DNA of 64,000 nucleotides from a virus, in the IMG/VR virus record IMGVR_UViG_3300031414_000009, positions 64,001-128,000 of that record; one strand, 5' to 3'. The number at the start of each line of letters is the position of its first letter. Positions within the stretch are counted from its first letter, which is position 1. The position numbers and the translations under genes were made by a program. Under the pieces are notes generated by a model. That model saw only the letters and a list, made by a program, of their open reading frames with translations. It was not told the DNA's origin and ran no database searches. Below are positions 52,088 to 61,700 of this stretch, in pieces.

Positions 52088-52125
52088 AGGGCATAAAACC
52101 CTCTCCCGAAGAAGAGGGCTTTAGA

Positions 52126-52761
52126 TTAGTCAATAAACACGCGTGGTTCGTAGTACTCGCCGCTGGTAGCAGGCCCAGGTAAAATGCCGTACGGACCAGG
52201 AACAAAGAAGTCTTTGAACTGTCCGGCTTTATATGGTGTATAGACCCATGCCCTTTTGATACGAGCGGTCTCACGATCCAGTACGTCCACTTGGGTCACG
52301 ACGCGGTAAATTGTGCCTTTGTAACCGAAACAATAAAAGTACTCGTGTCCAGTGTCGATACGATTTGGGTCTTTACAGAACCCTATGGCCAGATTACGTT
52401 CAGTTTGGTTAGATCTTGCAAGTACGGTATTCTGGCGAAGGAATTCCCAATACTCTTCAACGCCCAACGACTTAACGATAGACTCTTGGTCACGGAAGTA
52501 ATTATCGGCCCGAATAAAGGGTACCGTAGAGTCTTCCATGTCAGCATCAGCACGTATGCTAATATAGCTGGGGTAAGTCAAGTTGAAAGCTGGTTCGTCG
52601 TGCTGGTAGTTACCATTGAGCGTGATAACCTTTGTGGCGGGCATGGCTTCGTATAAGTCACGAATCTCAATGCCCTTAAAAGTCGGAGGTTTGTTAAACG
52701 CACAACCCGTCAAGAACGTTAGAGATACTAACACGAACAAAGCCATACAACGTTTAAACAT
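52126..52761 (-). CDS. Putative lipoprotein
   Basis: Signal peptide with lipobox FLTG-C; GGAGG RBS. Confidence 0.7.
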   Translation of the reverse strand: MFKRCMALFVLVSLTFLTGCAFNKPPTFKGIEIRDLYEAMPATKVITLNGNYQHDEPAFNLTYPSYISIRADADMEDSTVPFIRADNYFRDQESIVKSLGVEEYWEFLRQNTVLARSNQTERNLAIGFCKDPNRIDTGHEYFYCFGYKGTIYRVVTQVDVLDRETARIKRAWVYTPYKAGQFKDFFVPGPYGILPGPATSGEYYEPRVFID

Positions 52762-55502: not shown

Positions 55503-56195
55503 TTATATCCCCGCTAATAAATAACTGTTACGTGTGCAGATGCAGAGCTTGTGATGGCGTGCCCGCACGTAAACCTTGACCGCATTCGAGTGACCAGGAA
55601 CGTCGATACGTTTGAAGAGCAGTGGAATAGCATACTCCTCTTGTTTAGGCAGGAACCAGAACTGTGACTCCCATGCAGAGCGCAGTGTCCGACCATCTAC
55701 CATCAAATTACGTACCGTGTTAATGATCAACTCACAGCGTGCATCGCGTTTGTCTTTCCAATAAGCTAAGACATTGCTTGCACCAGGACGAGGTTCGCTG
55801 TCAATCTTCTTAATGGATGCTGCGATAACAGTCAGCGCATTATTCCGATAGTCGACCTCTTTACGCAGCTCTTTAGCCAAATGCACCAATGTCGTATAAT
55901 TCGGGCGATTAAGCTCAGCATATTCTTCTCTACTGTACGAGTGACCGTAGAATACAGAGAAGAATAAGCGTCCCTCAAGCCACGATGGCATTTTGTTCTC
56001 AATGATAGCCAAAGCAGTCCATACATCCATGTCCTTGATGACTTGATCCTTTCGACCGTGCTTGTAATACTCACTGTTCAGCAGAAACGTTAAGGTCTCC
56101 ACTTTGTGATGCGGATACTGATCTTTCAGGTATGCCACTGCGGTGATGAAATTGAAAGTGTGAGTAACGCGCGCCAGTTCTCTTGAGAATTTCAT
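55503..56195 (-). CDS. Hypothetical protein
   Basis: 230 aa ORF. Confidence 0.65.
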   Translation of the reverse strand: MKFSRELARVTHTFNFITAVAYLKDQYPHHKVETLTFLLNSEYYKHGRKDQVIKDMDVWTALAIIENKMPSWLEGRLFFSVFYGHSYSREEYAELNRPNYTTLVHLAKELRKEVDYRNNALTVIAASIKKIDSEPRPGASNVLAYWKDKRDARCELIINTVRNLMVDGRTLRSAWESQFWFLPKQEEYAIPLLFKRIDVPGHSNAVKVYVRARHHKLCICTRNSYLLAGI

Positions 56196-56268
56196 GTTAG
56201 TACCTAAAAAAGATTAAAAAATAAAGTAGCACAAAAGGAGAGCCGAAGCCCTCCTGTGTTTTGTTCTT

Positions 56269-57192
56269 TTAAGCGTCAAGTTCATCCGGGCAGATAACCA
56301 CGACGTTCTTGTACAGAATGGCACTGTACGGGCCAATACTCAGATACTCGAACATACGACTGTTCGGTACGTCGCCAGCAATATAATTGTTGAGCTTGTC
56401 AATGATCTCCGTGACACAACCAGACCAGCAGATATTCTGCCAGATAGCCAGAGCCGGATCGATAAGCAGTTCTGACTCAGTCAAGTCATCGCGTTCTACC
56501 GTAGTAAAGGTACGTGGCTCACCATTACCCAGTTCGATGAGAACGTTAGCAAACTGGTCAAAGATGTCGACGTGCTCAGCCGGAGCCTGCTCTGGCCATA
56601 CATAGCTGAACGGAACGATTGAAGTCTGACGGGTGGTTGCGTTCAGCTGCTCTACCAGGGTAGTGCGTTTGTAGCGAACCAGACCGCGCTTAACTTCAAA
56701 CTGGATACGCACACTTACGTTGGTATCGTTGTGCTGCGCATCGAGCGTGTGGTGACCATTGAACTGCACCCAACCAGATCCCAGCAGCGTCATTGCCAAC
56801 GACAACTTACCTGCGCCTACACAATGAGAGAAGACCATGTTCATCAGATTCTGAATGGAAATCATTTCATCGTAAGCAACCAGTGCCTCCACCGGAATAT
56901 TAGCCAGCCAAAGCGGGATGTTGGTCAGACGAGTACACGGGCAGCTTGACAGCACGAACTCAGTAACCTGAGACGGGAACATCGCTGTAGCTAACTGCTC
57001 CAGACGTACACGGTACTGAATGGTCGGGTGTTCGTAAGTGGTGCTGTTACGAAGGTCGTCATGTCCGACACCTACTGCATCGATCTGCAACAGGAACGAG
57101 TTGTCGATCAGATCCAGGTCACGAACCAGGATAGAGCCGTTCTTAGCTGGGAGGGTAGATTTGATATGGGTAACACGGATATTGCGGTTCAT
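56269..57192 (-). CDS. Hypothetical protein downstream of the structured RNA
   Basis: Start moved to MNRNIR after AAGGA; strong codon bias (CTG, AAC, ATC, CGT). Confidence 0.75.
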   Translation of the reverse strand: MNRNIRVTHIKSTLPAKNGSILVRDLDLIDNSFLLQIDAVGVGHDDLRNSTTYEHPTIQYRVRLEQLATAMFPSQVTEFVLSSCPCTRLTNIPLWLANIPVEALVAYDEMISIQNLMNMVFSHCVGAGKLSLAMTLLGSGWVQFNGHHTLDAQHNDTNVSVRIQFEVKRGLVRYKRTTLVEQLNATTRQTSIVPFSYVWPEQAPAEHVDIFDQFANVLIELGNGEPRTFTTVERDDLTESELLIDPALAIWQNICWSGCVTEIIDKLNNYIAGDVPNSRMFEYLSIGPYSAILYKNVVVICPDELDA

Positions 57193-57208
57193 AGGTAGAT
57201 CCTTGTGT

Positions 57209-57577
57209 AATGTCCTATTGGCGGACATGGATTAATGTAAACCGGCATATTAAGGAATTCAATACGCGGTGGAATGTACAGGGGTGTCTTATTTCCCTGC
57301 ACATACACACTACGCACTGATGCTTACGGATGTAATTCAACCGAGCACTGTGATGATGGATTGATTAGAAGTTTTTCCGGAACGTCTCATCCAACACCAA
57401 TGTATAGTGCCAACTCGTTATGGTGAGTTGGCTACCATAGGGAGCATGAGGAAGAGCGCGAAATGGTTTACCATGCAACCCCGCGAAGGCATTTAGCTAT
57501 GCAGTCAACTTGTAAGAGGTGAACCGCATTGAACCATGGTAATTCCAAATCGGGATGCTCTCCCTCACGCAAACCGG
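57209..57577 (-). ncRNA. Candidate structured non-coding RNA or cis-regulatory leader, about 370 nt
   Basis: No credible ORF in an otherwise gene-dense window; at least eight helices, whose non-Watson-Crick positions are mostly G-U only on the minus strand. Confidence 0.65.
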
Positions 57578-57581
57578 GCAG

Positions 57582-57788
57582 TTACGCCGCGATATCGTTA
57601 GCCTGTTTCTCTTCTTCCACTTCCGCAGAATCAGTGAGGTGCAGCATCTGCTGCTCATCCAGGTGATCTACCAGCGCAGCGCTCAGAGCTTCACGCTCTT
57701 CTGCAACATTCAGGTCGACAGGTTTTTCTGGGCTGAAAGTACTCAGGAAACCGGTTACTGATTCTTTGATCTCGATTTTAGTTGACAT
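57582..57788 (-). CDS. Acidic microprotein ending in an ssrA-like tail (..KQANDIAA)
   Basis: GGAG RBS, 68 aa, strong codon bias. Confidence 0.7.
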   Translation of the reverse strand: MSTKIEIKESVTGFLSTFSPEKPVDLNVAEEREALSAALVDHLDEQQMLHLTDSAEVEEEKQANDIAA

Positions 57789-57882
57789 CGATACTGCTCC
57801 GATAGGTTAGAACGATTGAGTACGCCACCATTGGCGTACCCTTAACACAACGAACTGCTTACAGACCGCGTTTGGGTAAAGC

Positions 57883-58311
57883 TTAGCTCAGCGCTTCGGC
57901 GGCTTTTGCTTTCAGGTGTGCTTTGACAGAAGTCAGGTGCGCAGTTGCACGATACTTCACAGAGATCTGGCTGGTAGACATGCGACCGCCTTTACCATCA
58001 GATACTTCGACAGAGCGTTTGAAGCCCAGGTCGAGGTTCGCAGAACCCATTGGGATACGCGCCGCAGTAGCTTCCAGCTCTTTGCTGCCAGCCATTTTGT
58101 CAACAGACAGTTCACCCATTGCCAGGGCCGCTGCACACATAAAGGTATTGTCGTTCTTCTCATATGCCTTACGGCCTTCGAGAGTCAGACCTTCAGCCAG
58201 GTTACGCTCGTAAGCGTCGGCTGCGAATACCGGGGAACCGTCTTCTGCGTAGGTCACGTCAGTTTTCAGGTTGTCTGCTACGTTACGTACTGCGTCTTTA
58301 ATAGTGCTCAT
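57883..58311 (-). CDS. Hypothetical protein, probably highly expressed
   Basis: 142 aa, GGAG RBS, strong codon bias. Confidence 0.75.
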   Translation of the reverse strand: MSTIKDAVRNVADNLKTDVTYAEDGSPVFAADAYERNLAEGLTLEGRKAYEKNDNTFMCAAALAMGELSVDKMAGSKELEATAARIPMGSANLDLGFKRSVEVSDGKGGRMSTSQISVKYRATAHLTSVKAHLKAKAAEALS

Positions 58312-58400
58312 TATACTACTCCATTCGTTCAGTGTTGATAGTTCGGATTGGGATTACTTTTATAGCATACCCTCACTCTATACGTGGGGTATGTATTTTT

Positions 58401-58784
58401 TTACAGCGTTGACATACGAGTAGCCAGCTCCAGATGTGAGCATACACCGTACAAACGCAGATTGTGGATCTCTAACCCACCACAGGTTTCGACTTTGGCA
58501 ACGATCGGCTTCCATGATTCATGGATATCTTTAACCTGTGCTGCAAAGCGAGTTGAGGACACTGGGTGAATACCCACGATACCACGGTGGTCGTTGTTGT
58601 CTGCATAACCGACTACACCGTAGATACGACCTTCACGGAGTTCTTCACGTTCGATACCGAGAATGCCATATTCTTCTTTGACTACGTCCCCATTGCTCAG
58701 GGTAACGTCTACACGAATAGTAGACAGACTGAGGTGGCTGTTCCACTGGATAGATACGAAGTCAAGCTTTTGTGCATTTAACAT
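58401..58784 (-). CDS. Hypothetical early protein
   Basis: 127 aa, behind a TATATTAC promoter. Confidence 0.7.
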   Translation of the reverse strand: MLNAQKLDFVSIQWNSHLSLSTIRVDVTLSNGDVVKEEYGILGIEREELREGRIYGVVGYADNNDHRGIVGIHPVSSTRFAAQVKDIHESWKPIVAKVETCGGLEIHNLRLYGVCSHLELATRMSTL

Positions 58785-58823
58785 GGGGTCTTATTCCTTA
58801 TAGGAGTGGGTGTTAACACTAAG

Positions 58824-58840
58824 GTAATATATACTTGAAA
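58824..58840 (-). promoter_or_regulatory. Early promoter motif
   Basis: Minus strand TTTCAAGTATATATTAC. Confidence 0.75.
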
Positions 58841-59374
58841 TTACTTTGAGTCCGCAACGACCACCAGGCTGGATTCCATCGTGTTGATGCGAGCCTCTAG
58901 CTTCTCACGGAAAGTGATGGAGCCAATCGTCTCTTGCAGTGAGAGGCACTCTACAACGATCACAGGAACAACCAGAGAAACAAACCTGCGCGGGGTGACA
59001 CCACGCATCGGGTTGAACATGCGCATCTTGTAGAGCTTCCTGAACAGCTCTTTCGCCATCGGGTTAAACGCCAGCAGGTGAGCGCGGAGCTTTAACCATT
59101 CCAGCATAATGTCTACAGTCAATGCCAACACCCGCATCTTAGAGCTATCGCCATTATCTGCATACATAGCGTAGTGGCTTTCTAACGGAATCCGTGAAAG
59201 GATAACCCCAGGCTGAAACACGGTATCGCAGTGTGGTGCTGTGGTGGCCACTAATTGCTGACGAGTAGGTCTGCGCATACCCTTGCGATAGAGAGAACGA
59301 AATGTGGTGTAAATGTTCGTTACTAAGATAGTGACTTCAGACTCAAGGCTTGCGATGACGAGGTGGTTTGACAT
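58841..59374 (-). CDS. Hypothetical protein
   Basis: 177 aa ORF, AAGGA RBS. Confidence 0.65.
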   Translation of the reverse strand: MSNHLVIASLESEVTILVTNIYTTFRSLYRKGMRRPTRQQLVATTAPHCDTVFQPGVILSRIPLESHYAMYADNGDSSKMRVLALTVDIMLEWLKLRAHLLAFNPMAKELFRKLYKMRMFNPMRGVTPRRFVSLVVPVIVVECLSLQETIGSITFREKLEARINTMESSLVVVADSK

Positions 59375-60086: not shown

Positions 60087-60127
60087 GGCATAAAAGCCTC
60101 CCGAGAAGGAGGCTTTGTTTTTATGCC
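60087..60127. terminator. Symmetric terminator with TTTTATGCC on both strands
   Basis: GGCATAAAAGCCTCC-CGAGAA-GGAGGCTTTGTTTTTATGCC. Confidence 0.8.
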
Positions 60128-60879
60128 GAAGTAATATCGGTTATCTTTTTCCAGCGCGATAAAAGATCAGCGCTTCCTGCGATTGCTTCATCGCCTGGGC
60201 TAGTCTGGTTGAATACCCAGTTAGCAGCCGCCAGCGGCTCTGTGCCGCCTTTAGTGATCCAGGTGGCCATAGCACCAGCATCGTAGAACACTGTCTCACG
60301 GTTCTCGTTAGCGAGGCTTGTGAGGGCAGATACAAATACGTTACCTGTTGGCTGCAATGGATCATTGTGTCGCAGGATAACAATAGCCACATACGTTACG
60401 TGACGAAGGAGAGCACGCAGGATACCAGAGTTCTCAATGCCCACTGGTGTACCCTTATTCTCTTCTTCCTGAATCAACGTCTTAATGCCCAACATCGCCA
60501 TCGCCAGTGCCGGGTAGTTAATCGGGTCCTGGTTAAAGGTGTAGCCAATGCGAGGAGGTAAATACGTCGCACGGTTGCTGATGTAAGACATATTGTAGCC
60601 GTAGAGAATATTTAAAAACACGGCTTCGATATAAGAGTCAGGAATGTCACGTAAATTGGCAATCGGAATAGGGTTGAGTGGATCAGCCCCTGCGATGCGT
60701 TGACGCCATTCGTCGGCAGAGAAGTCAATCTCCCACGTTACTTCAGGCAGTGGCTCTAGTGGCTTCGTATACGTACCGATACCGGCAGTATCTACGCCAC
60801 CATCCCAGAATTTGAAATAGTCCTGTGGAACCAGCGCCAACGCACCGAAAACATCAGTGCTTTTTCGGTAGATATACAT
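60121..60879 (-). CDS. Hypothetical phiKZ-like protein next to the prohead protease
   Basis: 252 aa; promoter motif at 60895-60911. Confidence 0.7.
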   Translation of the reverse strand: MYIYRKSTDVFGALALVPQDYFKFWDGGVDTAGIGTYTKPLEPLPEVTWEIDFSADEWRQRIAGADPLNPIPIANLRDIPDSYIEAVFLNILYGYNMSYISNRATYLPPRIGYTFNQDPINYPALAMAMLGIKTLIQEEENKGTPVGIENSGILRALLRHVTYVAIVILRHNDPLQPTGNVFVSALTSLANENRETVFYDAGAMATWITKGGTEPLAAANWVFNQTSPGDEAIAGSADLLSRWKKITDITSA

Positions 60880-60920: not shown

Positions 60921-61700
60921 TTACCAGCGAGTAGAGCCACCAACTGGGAACACGAGTTCGCCGCGATTAGGCTTGCGTGCACCGATGTCCAGGATGATGC
61001 TCTTGGCCACGTTGTTCGCAGACTCATTACCCATCTGTGCATTCTGACGACGTTCAACGAGTTCGTCCAACATGTCACGAGAGATAACGATTTCCGGACC
61101 ACTGTGTGCTTCAAGACCTGGTGCGTTCCACTTCTTCGCCAGATAGATACCCGGCTCATTAACGTGGTCGTATGTGATAACAGCACGGACTTCTTTTTCA
61201 AGACGACCATTGCGGTAGTTATCATCAGTCAGGCTACGGATAGACTGACACGCATTGGCACGTGGAGTTTCCAGTGCATCAATCAGTGCGCCTTTCTTAT
61301 CGCCAAAAGGTTTGACCTTGCCTAAGATGGCAATGATCGGTTGACCATCGCGACCACGGAACAGACCATCGTCTGCCCAAAGATCTGCGATGTGCTGGCA
61401 AACGTTTGGCTCGTAGATGTCCATGATGCGATTCATGAACTGACGATCATTCATGCCGGGTTGCATACGCGGATGACCCAGCTCACCACGCAGGGCACCG
61501 TCTAACACGCGGCGCTGGAATGCGCTCGTCTTAGCAAACAGTGCCTGTACGTTACGCGACCACGGGTACCATGCCTCACCGGAGTTGTGAACGTTAAAGC
61601 CGCCCATTACCATGGTATAAAAACCATCGGCATCAGGCTTCATCACGCCGGACTTGTTGGTACCTTGCAGTGCGGTACAACCATAACGAAAGAGTTCCAT
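60921..61700 (-). CDS. Prohead (head maturation) protease, phiKZ gp175-like
   Basis: LRGELGHP (catalytic His), QSIRS (catalytic Ser), TYDHVNEPGI; C-terminal GLE/GNE candidate autocleavage sites. Confidence 0.9.
   Translation of the reverse strand: MELFRYGCTALQGTNKSGVMKPDADGFYTMVMGGFNVHNSGEAWYPWSRNVQALFAKTSAFQRRVLDGALRGELGHPRMQPGMNDRQFMNRIMDIYEPNVCQHIADLWADDGLFRGRDGQPIIAILGKVKPFGDKKGALIDALETPRANACQSIRSLTDDNYRNGRLEKEVRAVITYDHVNEPGIYLAKKWNAPGLEAHSGPEIVISRDMLDELVERRQNAQMGNESANNVAKSIILDIGARKPNRGELVFPVGGSTRW

Follow-up and report, generated by a model that had tools for sequence, protein, structure and literature searches.

The question raised by this locus is what a phiKZ-like jumbo phage encodes in a gap without genes within its head-assembly operon. 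The window, by which we mean the whole stretch of viral DNA that was analyzed (64,000 nt), contains this gap on its minus strand at 57193-57581 (389 nt), flanked by a 68-aa ORF, whose stop codon precedes it, and by a 307-aa ORF, whose start follows it, and the original prediction had placed a large, unannotated structured RNA in it. The existence of a real structured RNA encoded by the gap is confirmed: comparison with shuffled sequences (z -6.5) and covariation among syntenic relatives establish that it is large, strand-specific, and conserved, and all of the predicted coordinates proved to be correct, with each listed helix found at its position. The assignment of the genome to the phiKZ-like jumbo phages also holds, given a head protease with 288 phage matches, the occurrence of PF20034 in relatives, and the identity of the nearest cultured relatives, which are Erwinia jumbo phages. 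The genes that matter for the following are:

60921-61700: head-maturation protease of the phiKZ type, a 259-aa ORF, identified by 288 matching phage records
57883-58311, minus strand: conserved 142-aa gene (PHROG 9746), located 5' of the RNA in all lineages and also 5' of the structured gaps of RAY and pEa_SNUABM_37 (pEa37)
57582-57788, minus strand: 68-aa acidic ORF upstream of the RNA, found between the RNA's 5' domain (D1) and its core in loci L135 and L136
56269-57192, minus strand: downstream gene of 307 aa, the fastest-evolving gene of the neighborhood, with homologs behind the RNA in all lineages

Terminator hairpins are present on the minus strand at about 60093 (60097-60109) and at about 52096-52130, each followed by TTTTATGCC, and a terminator-like site is found at 56255-56236, 3' of the 307-aa gene. 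These sites place the RNA inside a transcription unit, about 2.5 kb from the probable start. After both hairpins and the same TTTTATGCC, the Shine-Dalgarno sequence (SD) of the next gene follows within about 25 nt, and this arrangement may represent a combined terminator and phage-promoter signal. The candidate phage promoter motif was searched for next to the RNA and is absent there, and no terminator and, in a promoter scan restricted to the sigma-70 type, no promoter was found at the RNA ends in the window. Elsewhere in the neighborhood, the adjacent genes at 60121-60879 (252 aa) and 60921-61700 (259 aa), the second of which is the phiKZ-type head protease, are similar in size and are possibly tandem paralogs; the RAY product annotated as a head maturation protease sits at the position of the first gene. 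Three genes downstream, the 153-aa gene at 54398-54859 matches Pfam PF27224 (YfjT) in relatives and has a neighboring paralog of 151-152 aa.

On the minus strand, 57193-57581 folds with an MFE of -138.9 kcal/mol versus a shuffle mean of -102.6 +/- 5.6 (z -6.50), and none of 100 shuffles was as good, whereas the plus strand of the same gap gives a z of only -1.13. Such a strong strand-specific signal is expected for an RNA that uses G-U pairs, and the shuffle test on both strands confirms the asymmetry between strands that had been proposed on the basis of G-U pairs that would be lost on the other strand.

No near-identical DNA was found in the phage collection by megablast. The Erwinia phage pEa_SNUABM_54 (pEa54), however, encodes a homolog of the 142-aa gene that is followed at the same place by a 334-nt gap with a z of -4.3; its RNA maps to 106411-106747 of MW879341. 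Loci were gathered via contigs encoding homologs of the 307-aa and 142-aa proteins, which provided 16 further loci from about seven lineages, including the cultured pEa_SNUABM_54, with a matching RNA between the same genes. The common gene order, with genes given by their lengths in aa, is head protease (PF20034), 252, 226, (177), 127, 142, 68, the gap, 307-464, 230, and about 206-210. The core covariance model, R1, matches each of the 16 loci once, with scores from 209 down to 35 bits and E values from 1e-50 to 5e-7, and it has a single match in the 166-kb genome record and a single match in pEa54. The presence of the same flanking genes in every relative fits, at the level of gene order, the idea that the RNA and its neighbors may act as one module. 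Exact-motif scans of IMG/VR and of JGI metagenomes returned no contigs beyond those already known, and one 14-mer motif gave more than 118 chance matches.

Two of the collected loci differ locally. In L159 (519-1448), a 309-aa gene with faint HTH_28/DUF7769 matches is inserted between the 143-aa gene and the small ORF, possibly as a mobile element. In L156 (2225-2527), 303 nt without a called gene (z -4.3) separate the 143-aa gene from a 67-aa ORF; this segment has two strong hairpins and apparently contains another small acidic ORF, comparable to the extra 61-aa ORFs that are called in L138 and annotated in pEa54.

Combining RNAalifold output with one closing helix found by hand gave a structure model of 102 pairs in 16 helices, and covariation was evaluated in three alignments:

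Full gap, 12 sequences: 102 pairs, 97.5% paired versus 33-41% in slid controls, 41 compensatory versus 6-11
Core, 17 sequences: 47 pairs, 96.8% paired versus 34-43% in slid controls, 25 compensatory versus 4-8
5' domain alone: 31 pairs, 96.9% paired versus 36-53% in slid controls, 17 compensatory versus 3-10

In each of these alignments, none of 500 shuffles equalled the observed paired fraction or covariation score. Because the compensatory counts come from related sequences and the 17-sequence core alignment was fitted to R1, the slid controls are the fairer comparison. The elements of the RNA, read in the 5' to 3' direction, are:

57573-57577, minus strand: 5' strand of the closing helix P0, 4 nt past the stop codon of the 68-aa ORF, pairing with 57242-57246
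57444-57570, minus strand: accessory 5' domain D1 of 127 nt, with 31 pairs, 96.9% paired and 17 compensatory
57409-57432, minus strand: hairpin A, an 8-bp stem with a conserved 8-nt loop of the ACCAUAAC type and an invariant CC
57309-57408, minus strand: central multi-helix junction, two helices around conserved unpaired sequence
57371-57383, minus strand: peripheral hairpin with the 7-nt loop CCGGAAA, containing a self-complementary CCGG at 57380-57377
57340-57357, minus strand: near-invariant junction strand with CACAGUGCUCGG, the best conserved unpaired stretch of the family
57269-57308, minus strand: hairpin B, whose 11-nt loop ends in UAAGACAC and whose stem comprises 10 bp and an outer 3 bp
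57247-57265, minus strand: hairpin e, which follows hairpin B and precedes the 3' strand of P0, with one-sided changes only
57242-57246, minus strand: 3' strand of P0, pairing with 57573-57577
57199-57232, minus strand: anti-SD module, comprising the anti-SD (57232-57229), a hairpin (57228-57210), a spacer, and the SD of the 307-aa gene (57202-57199)

The closing helix P0 consists of 5 pairs, which are 97% paired and include one compensatory pair (G-C to A-U). It also accounts for the CCGGTTT that had been noticed at both ends of the element: its reading as a direct repeat is not meaningful, as the CCGG parts pair with each other (57577-57573 with 57246-57242), with one compensatory change. 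In domain D1, which P0 encloses together with the core, a closing stem of 13-14 bp, a 7-bp helix, two internal helices, and a small conserved hairpin surround an invariant junction. The predicted long helix of 57570-57557 with 57457-57444 exists and covaries (13 pairs, 7 compensatory), and its inner continuations are supported too. D1 is self-contained, and the R2 model yields a single copy each for this genome and for pEa54. The domain is missing in the L151, L154, and L156 lineages and is cut down to its stem in L139; at its position, the L151 lineage has two unrelated hairpin domains and L154 has none, so that the minimal RNA is about 245 nt. In one lineage, represented by L135 and L136, D1 lies upstream of the small ORF, which separates it from the core. 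At this site (L135, 2330-2738, and the same coordinates in L136), the ORF between the two RNA parts encodes 69 aa and is acidic, and this local rearrangement keeps all three parts.

The universal core (57439-57269, about 170 nt) contains two hairpins with invariant loops and an invariant single-stranded junction. Both hairpins were foreseen correctly: in hairpin A (57432-57409), 7 of 8 pairs are compensatory and 99% are paired among 17 sequences, and in hairpin B (57304-57274), 8 of 10 pairs are compensatory with 100% paired. Hairpin B is the sole hairpin of its type in the 166-kb genome record. The prediction of a three-way junction between them was right in part. Its long closing helix stands, as a long-range helix of 57408-57395 with 57322-57309 that has 6 compensatory pairs in the 17-sequence core alignment, but its arms, UGGAU/AUCCA and UGCUCGG/CCG..AGCA, are artefacts of single-sequence MFE folding, and an inner helix of 57393-57388 with 57332-57327, which has 3 compensatory pairs, is preferred. 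The junction strand with CACAGUGCUCGG is kept from the window to the most distant members, for which R1 gives 35-45 bits. The CCGGAAA-loop hairpin, in contrast, is peripheral, since two lineages, L151 and L154, are without it; its stem has one compensatory change, in pEa54 and L156. A helix of CCGG with UCGG proposed by RNAalifold is doubted, because the pairing never varies and UCGG is invariant even where CCGG has been lost.

Toward the 3' end, the hairpin predicted at about 57265-57247 (hairpin e) is present, but compensatory support is lacking: changes are one-sided, and pEa54 has another hairpin there. In relatives, the position of hairpin e is taken by a different hairpin or an intrinsic terminator. 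The hairpin foreseen just before the ribosome-binding site (57228-57210), which has an A-rich loop, is upheld by 3 compensatory pairs. The layout of the anti-SD module (UCC or CCC, a covarying hairpin, GGA or GGU) is common to nine lineages, RAY and pEa37 among them. No more than 4 bp make up the helix that occludes the SD, and the predicted pairing probability of the SD is 0.53, which is the 42nd percentile among 177 genes of this genome; thus, the idea that SD occlusion is a thermodynamic outlier was rejected. Two pseudoknots suggested by hand inspection, one between the strand 5' of hairpin A and its loop and the other between the loop of the SD hairpin and the junction strand, were dropped because their variation is uncompensated.

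How strongly the RNA is constrained can be judged from nucleotide identities between the window and six relatives, given here in the same order for each element:

RNA core: 98, 95, 82, 82, 75, and 67%
142-aa gene: 86, 77, 81, 82, 75, and 72%
68-aa gene: 95, 64, 61, 65, 59, and 59%
307-aa gene: 82, 61, 62, 62, 56, and 55%
230-aa gene: 71, 67, 66, 66, 63, and 62%

The core is more conserved than the 68-, 307-, and 230-aa genes in all six comparisons. Set against the 142-aa gene, it has the higher identity in four relatives, ties with it in one, and falls below it in the most distant (pEa54). Purifying selection on the RNA is therefore about as strong as on its best-conserved neighbor. In the Agricanvirus phages, conservation extends up to the start codon and collapses beyond it: RAY and AH06 are 83% identical in the RNA gap and 27% in the downstream protein, and the values for RAY and Desertfox are 92% and 40%, respectively. 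Hypervariable genes behind the RNA are found at 56269-57192 in the window and at L146 (4179-5363), L163 (1699-2889), and L162 (1501-2913), and RAY and Desertfox differ to this extent in the downstream protein although they are close relatives.

The 307-aa protein belongs to no Pfam or PHROG family; a Foldseek search with its AF2 model (pLDDT 71) was negative, its best VIA Z is 4.9, and Atlas gave no lead. Weak similarity links it to RAY gp174 and to the proteins of 464 and 442 aa found behind the RNA in other lineages, in their N-terminal 300 residues. A paralog of the downstream gene exists, as tblastn gives two places per record. The downstream protein may be a diversifying host-interaction or capsid-internal protein. 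For the 142-aa protein, the model is poor (pLDDT 48), and the protein is without a known RNA-binding domain.

Distant homologs of the 142-aa protein extend to the Agricanvirus phages (RAY, Ea35-70, and others), to pEa_SNUABM_37 and pEa_SNUABM_48, and to Xanthomonas phage LucasX. Directly 3' of this homolog, RAY has a structured gap of 252 nt (z -6.9) and pEa37 one of 262 nt (z -4.5), and at the syntenic site in pEa_SNUABM_37 (local E 3.9e-5) and RAY, the loop of hairpin B is found on a wholly changed stem. Besides hairpin B, these gaps share a few short motifs with the RNA; R1 has no match to the whole RAY and pEa37 gaps, where hairpin B alone scores, and after circular permutation the pEa37 sequence scored no more than 4.4 bits, which is not significant. 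Homology of the RAY and pEa37 gaps is, on present sequence evidence, limited to hairpin B and unproven beyond it. In pEa37, an intrinsic terminator lies between the RNA and the SD module. Neither R1 nor R2 has a match in LucasX, where only a terminator is found behind the 142-aa homolog. In Erwinia phage AH06, the annotated gene 183 (L162, 1331-1504), a 57-codon ORF, spans the conserved structured Agricanvirus gap and is probably a mis-annotation.

The claim that the RNA belongs to no known class was examined by a search of Rfam 15, which yielded no family match in the window and zero matches in six related loci. Among its 4227 models (E up to 10), the best score was 17.5 bits against a threshold of 56, for a microRNA model on hairpin B (E 0.66). 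Within this search, the GOLLD and ROOL models (RF01998, RF03087) had no match in the window or in the six related loci, and the ribozyme models had no match at E up to 10. ARAGORN found no tRNA or tmRNA gene in 56000-59000. The evidence does not point to a group I intron either: RF00028 has no match (E up to 10), the 68-aa ORF is closed by a stop codon, and in every relative the 307-aa ORF starts from an SD and ATG of its own, with the small ORF of L135 lying between two RNA modules. The element is unlike such an intron in that both flanking ORFs are complete and the small ORF changes side relative to D1. As in a riboswitch, a conserved, covarying aptamer-like fold is located 5' of a putative regulated gene. 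In L156, and by MFE only, the C-run of the predicted core closing helix is also the C-run of the anti-SD; an alternative conformer or switch has no covariation support in the alignments.

The best explanation, which we hold tentatively, is that this RNA is a cis-acting leader gating the downstream gene, and we file it as a new RNA family within the known kind of large structured phage RNA or leader. On this view, the gap encodes a modular structured RNA that would be one segment of a polycistronic head-module transcript running from about 60093 to 56255-56236, and this RNA would set in cis the expression of the fast-evolving 307-aa family gene. The conserved loops and junction would bind a factor, which might be a small molecule or else a protein of the phage, with the co-conserved 142-aa product as one candidate. 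Whether the pyrimidine anti-SD beside the core can block the ribosome-binding site would then depend on the state of the fold, as would read-through of transcription in those lineages in which a terminator takes this position. Several features are consistent with this leader. The RNA is always on the coding strand immediately 5' of the 307-aa homologs and occurs in a single copy per genome. Its stability is strand-specific, with covariation across 12 and 17 sequences, and the order of anti-SD, hairpin, and SD with covarying stems is kept in nine lineages. The predicted shared C-run of L156 would follow the logic of a riboswitch expression platform, and the terminator of pEa37, between the RNA and the SD module, is placed as in attenuators. 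In addition, the core retains a higher identity than the 307-aa gene in every comparison, and conservation ends at the start codon. However, with an SD helix of only 4 bp and a mid-range pairing probability, occlusion is energetically ordinary, the alternative conformer is without covariation support, and most leaders are smaller and plainer than a core of about 170 nt plus accessory domains. Furthermore, D1 occurs on either side of the 68-aa ORF and hence need not adjoin the regulated start, and a terminator after the pEa37 RNA would fit a discrete, terminated RNA equally well.

Such a discrete RNA is a doubtful but nearly as likely alternative to the leader: a stable ncRNA processed or terminated out of the operon transcript and acting in trans, either in an RNP, for example with the 142-aa protein, or by self-association, in a role that could be tied to head assembly or phage mRNA handling. 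A universal core with invariant loops and junction and with lineage-specific accessory domains is typical of functional RNAs, and the closing helix that joins the ends, the portable D1 module, and the intrinsic terminator right after the syntenic pEa37 RNA would all suit a separate molecule, although neither a promoter nor a defined 5' end was found, the RNA begins 4 nt past a stop codon inside an operon, and the lineage of the window is without a canonical terminator. The loop of hairpin B is kept across genera while the rest diverges, and conservation of the RNA is closer to that of the 142-aa gene than to that of the downstream gene, but the model of the 142-aa protein is of low confidence, and the protein has no known RNA-binding domain. 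Through the self-complementary CCGG in the 7-nt loop, kissing dimers could form, comparable to those by which ROOL, GOLLD, and OLE are held together (PMC12286853), yet the CCGG hairpin is absent in two lineages. A more specific version, in which a head-assembly RNA acting in trans pairs via the CCGG loop or binds the 142-aa protein and serves as a scaffold, chaperone, or address label for a fast-evolving, possibly capsid-internal protein, appears unlikely.

Somewhat less probable still is a processing or stability element of the mRNA, whose long and almost perfect helices (the D1 stem and hairpin B), as substrates of RNase III or barriers to exonucleases, would uncouple the amounts of upstream and downstream message, as RNase III sites between T7 genes do. 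The internal position in a polycistronic unit, stems of 13-14 bp and 10-13 bp, and the location at the border of well-conserved and fast-evolving genes are in line with this, but an element of this kind needs little beyond a helix, whereas here loops and junction strands are invariant where stems have wholly changed, and D1, which contains the longest helix, is dispensable. The concentration of invariant unpaired nucleotides in a multi-helix junction might also recall a new self-cleaving or otherwise catalytic RNA, and small ribozymes abound in phages; no feature points to a cleavage site, however, and together with the negative search of the Rfam 15 ribozyme models this makes a catalytic RNA very improbable. 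The reading that the gap is not an RNA at all, but a DNA signal (an origin, a recombination flank for the variable gene, or protein-binding palindromes), a missed small gene, or a chance fold, is largely refuted and the least credible of all. The gap does border a hypervariable gene and contains palindromes, e.g., TTCCGGAA, but the asymmetry between strands, with a fold that relies on G-U pairs, and the compensatory changes, of which 41 keep pairing rather than sequence, argue against a cluster of DNA palindromes. Across the gap there are small ORFs (34-42 codons), and in AH06 such an ORF is annotated over the RAY-type gap; none of these ORFs starts with an ATG plus SD, and indels of 1-2 nt among relatives disrupt every small frame, which argues against a missed gene.

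What is new here is a conserved RNA family, backed by covariation, in which exchangeable accessory domains are added to a defined core, and which is located in front of a very fast-diversifying gene. If it is a leader, as we tentatively prefer, it would constitute a new and unusually large class of regulatory RNA; a trans-acting role would instead bring an RNA component into the assembly of jumbo phages. Among known systems, GOLLD (RF01998), ROOL (RF03087), and OLE are similar in being large, intricate, and often phage-borne RNAs of unknown function that were found by comparative genomics (PMC12286853), and they are likewise modular, with optional domains and with loops that could mediate self-association. 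There is, however, no match to them in sequence or structure, and the present RNA has about 250-390 nt versus 500-800. Furthermore, those RNAs are free-standing genes near tRNAs, whereas this one lies in a protein-coding operon directly before a start codon.

Riboswitches and autoregulatory leaders, such as ribosomal-protein leaders and the leader pseudoknot of T4 gene 32, share with it the cis position 5' of one gene family and the succession of a conserved fold and an SD-pairing element or, in one relative, a terminator, as well as, by MFE prediction in L156, a C-run that could belong to either the closing helix or the anti-SD. Unlike in those systems, there is no match to a known aptamer class, SD occlusion is predicted to be weak, and the gene concerned encodes a fast-evolving protein in a head module.

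Within the jumbo phages, a 2026 review goes no further than noting the expression of non-coding RNAs by phiKZ (PMC13282480), and the phiKZ examples found in full-text literature searches were only two short UTR-derived RNAs (PMC8545117). These are a 3'UTR RNA of PHIKZ298 of roughly 100 nt and a 5'UTR RNA of p40 of roughly 180 nt, one of which may end by premature termination before the downstream start (PMC8545117). Similar to the RNA described here, they are structured, come from a phiKZ-like jumbo phage, and derive from operon UTRs and not from genes of their own (PMC8545117). They differ in consisting of two hairpins, in their loci, and in having no reported conservation or covariation; no homology is apparent from their description.

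Finally, the pRNA of phi29 is tied to head morphogenesis and multimerizes through 4-bp loop-loop pairs, and the present RNA resembles it in being located in a head module and in having a 4-nt self-complementary loop. The two have no similarity in sequence or structure and come from different phage families. We know of no packaging or assembly RNA in the phiKZ-like phage family, and if a trans-acting role in head assembly were true, the present RNA would be a functional analogue of such an RNA. The question is directly testable at the bench because there is a clear member of the family in the cultured pEa_SNUABM_54 and because gaps that share one hairpin with it are present in the well-studied Agricanvirus phages RAY and Ea35-70.
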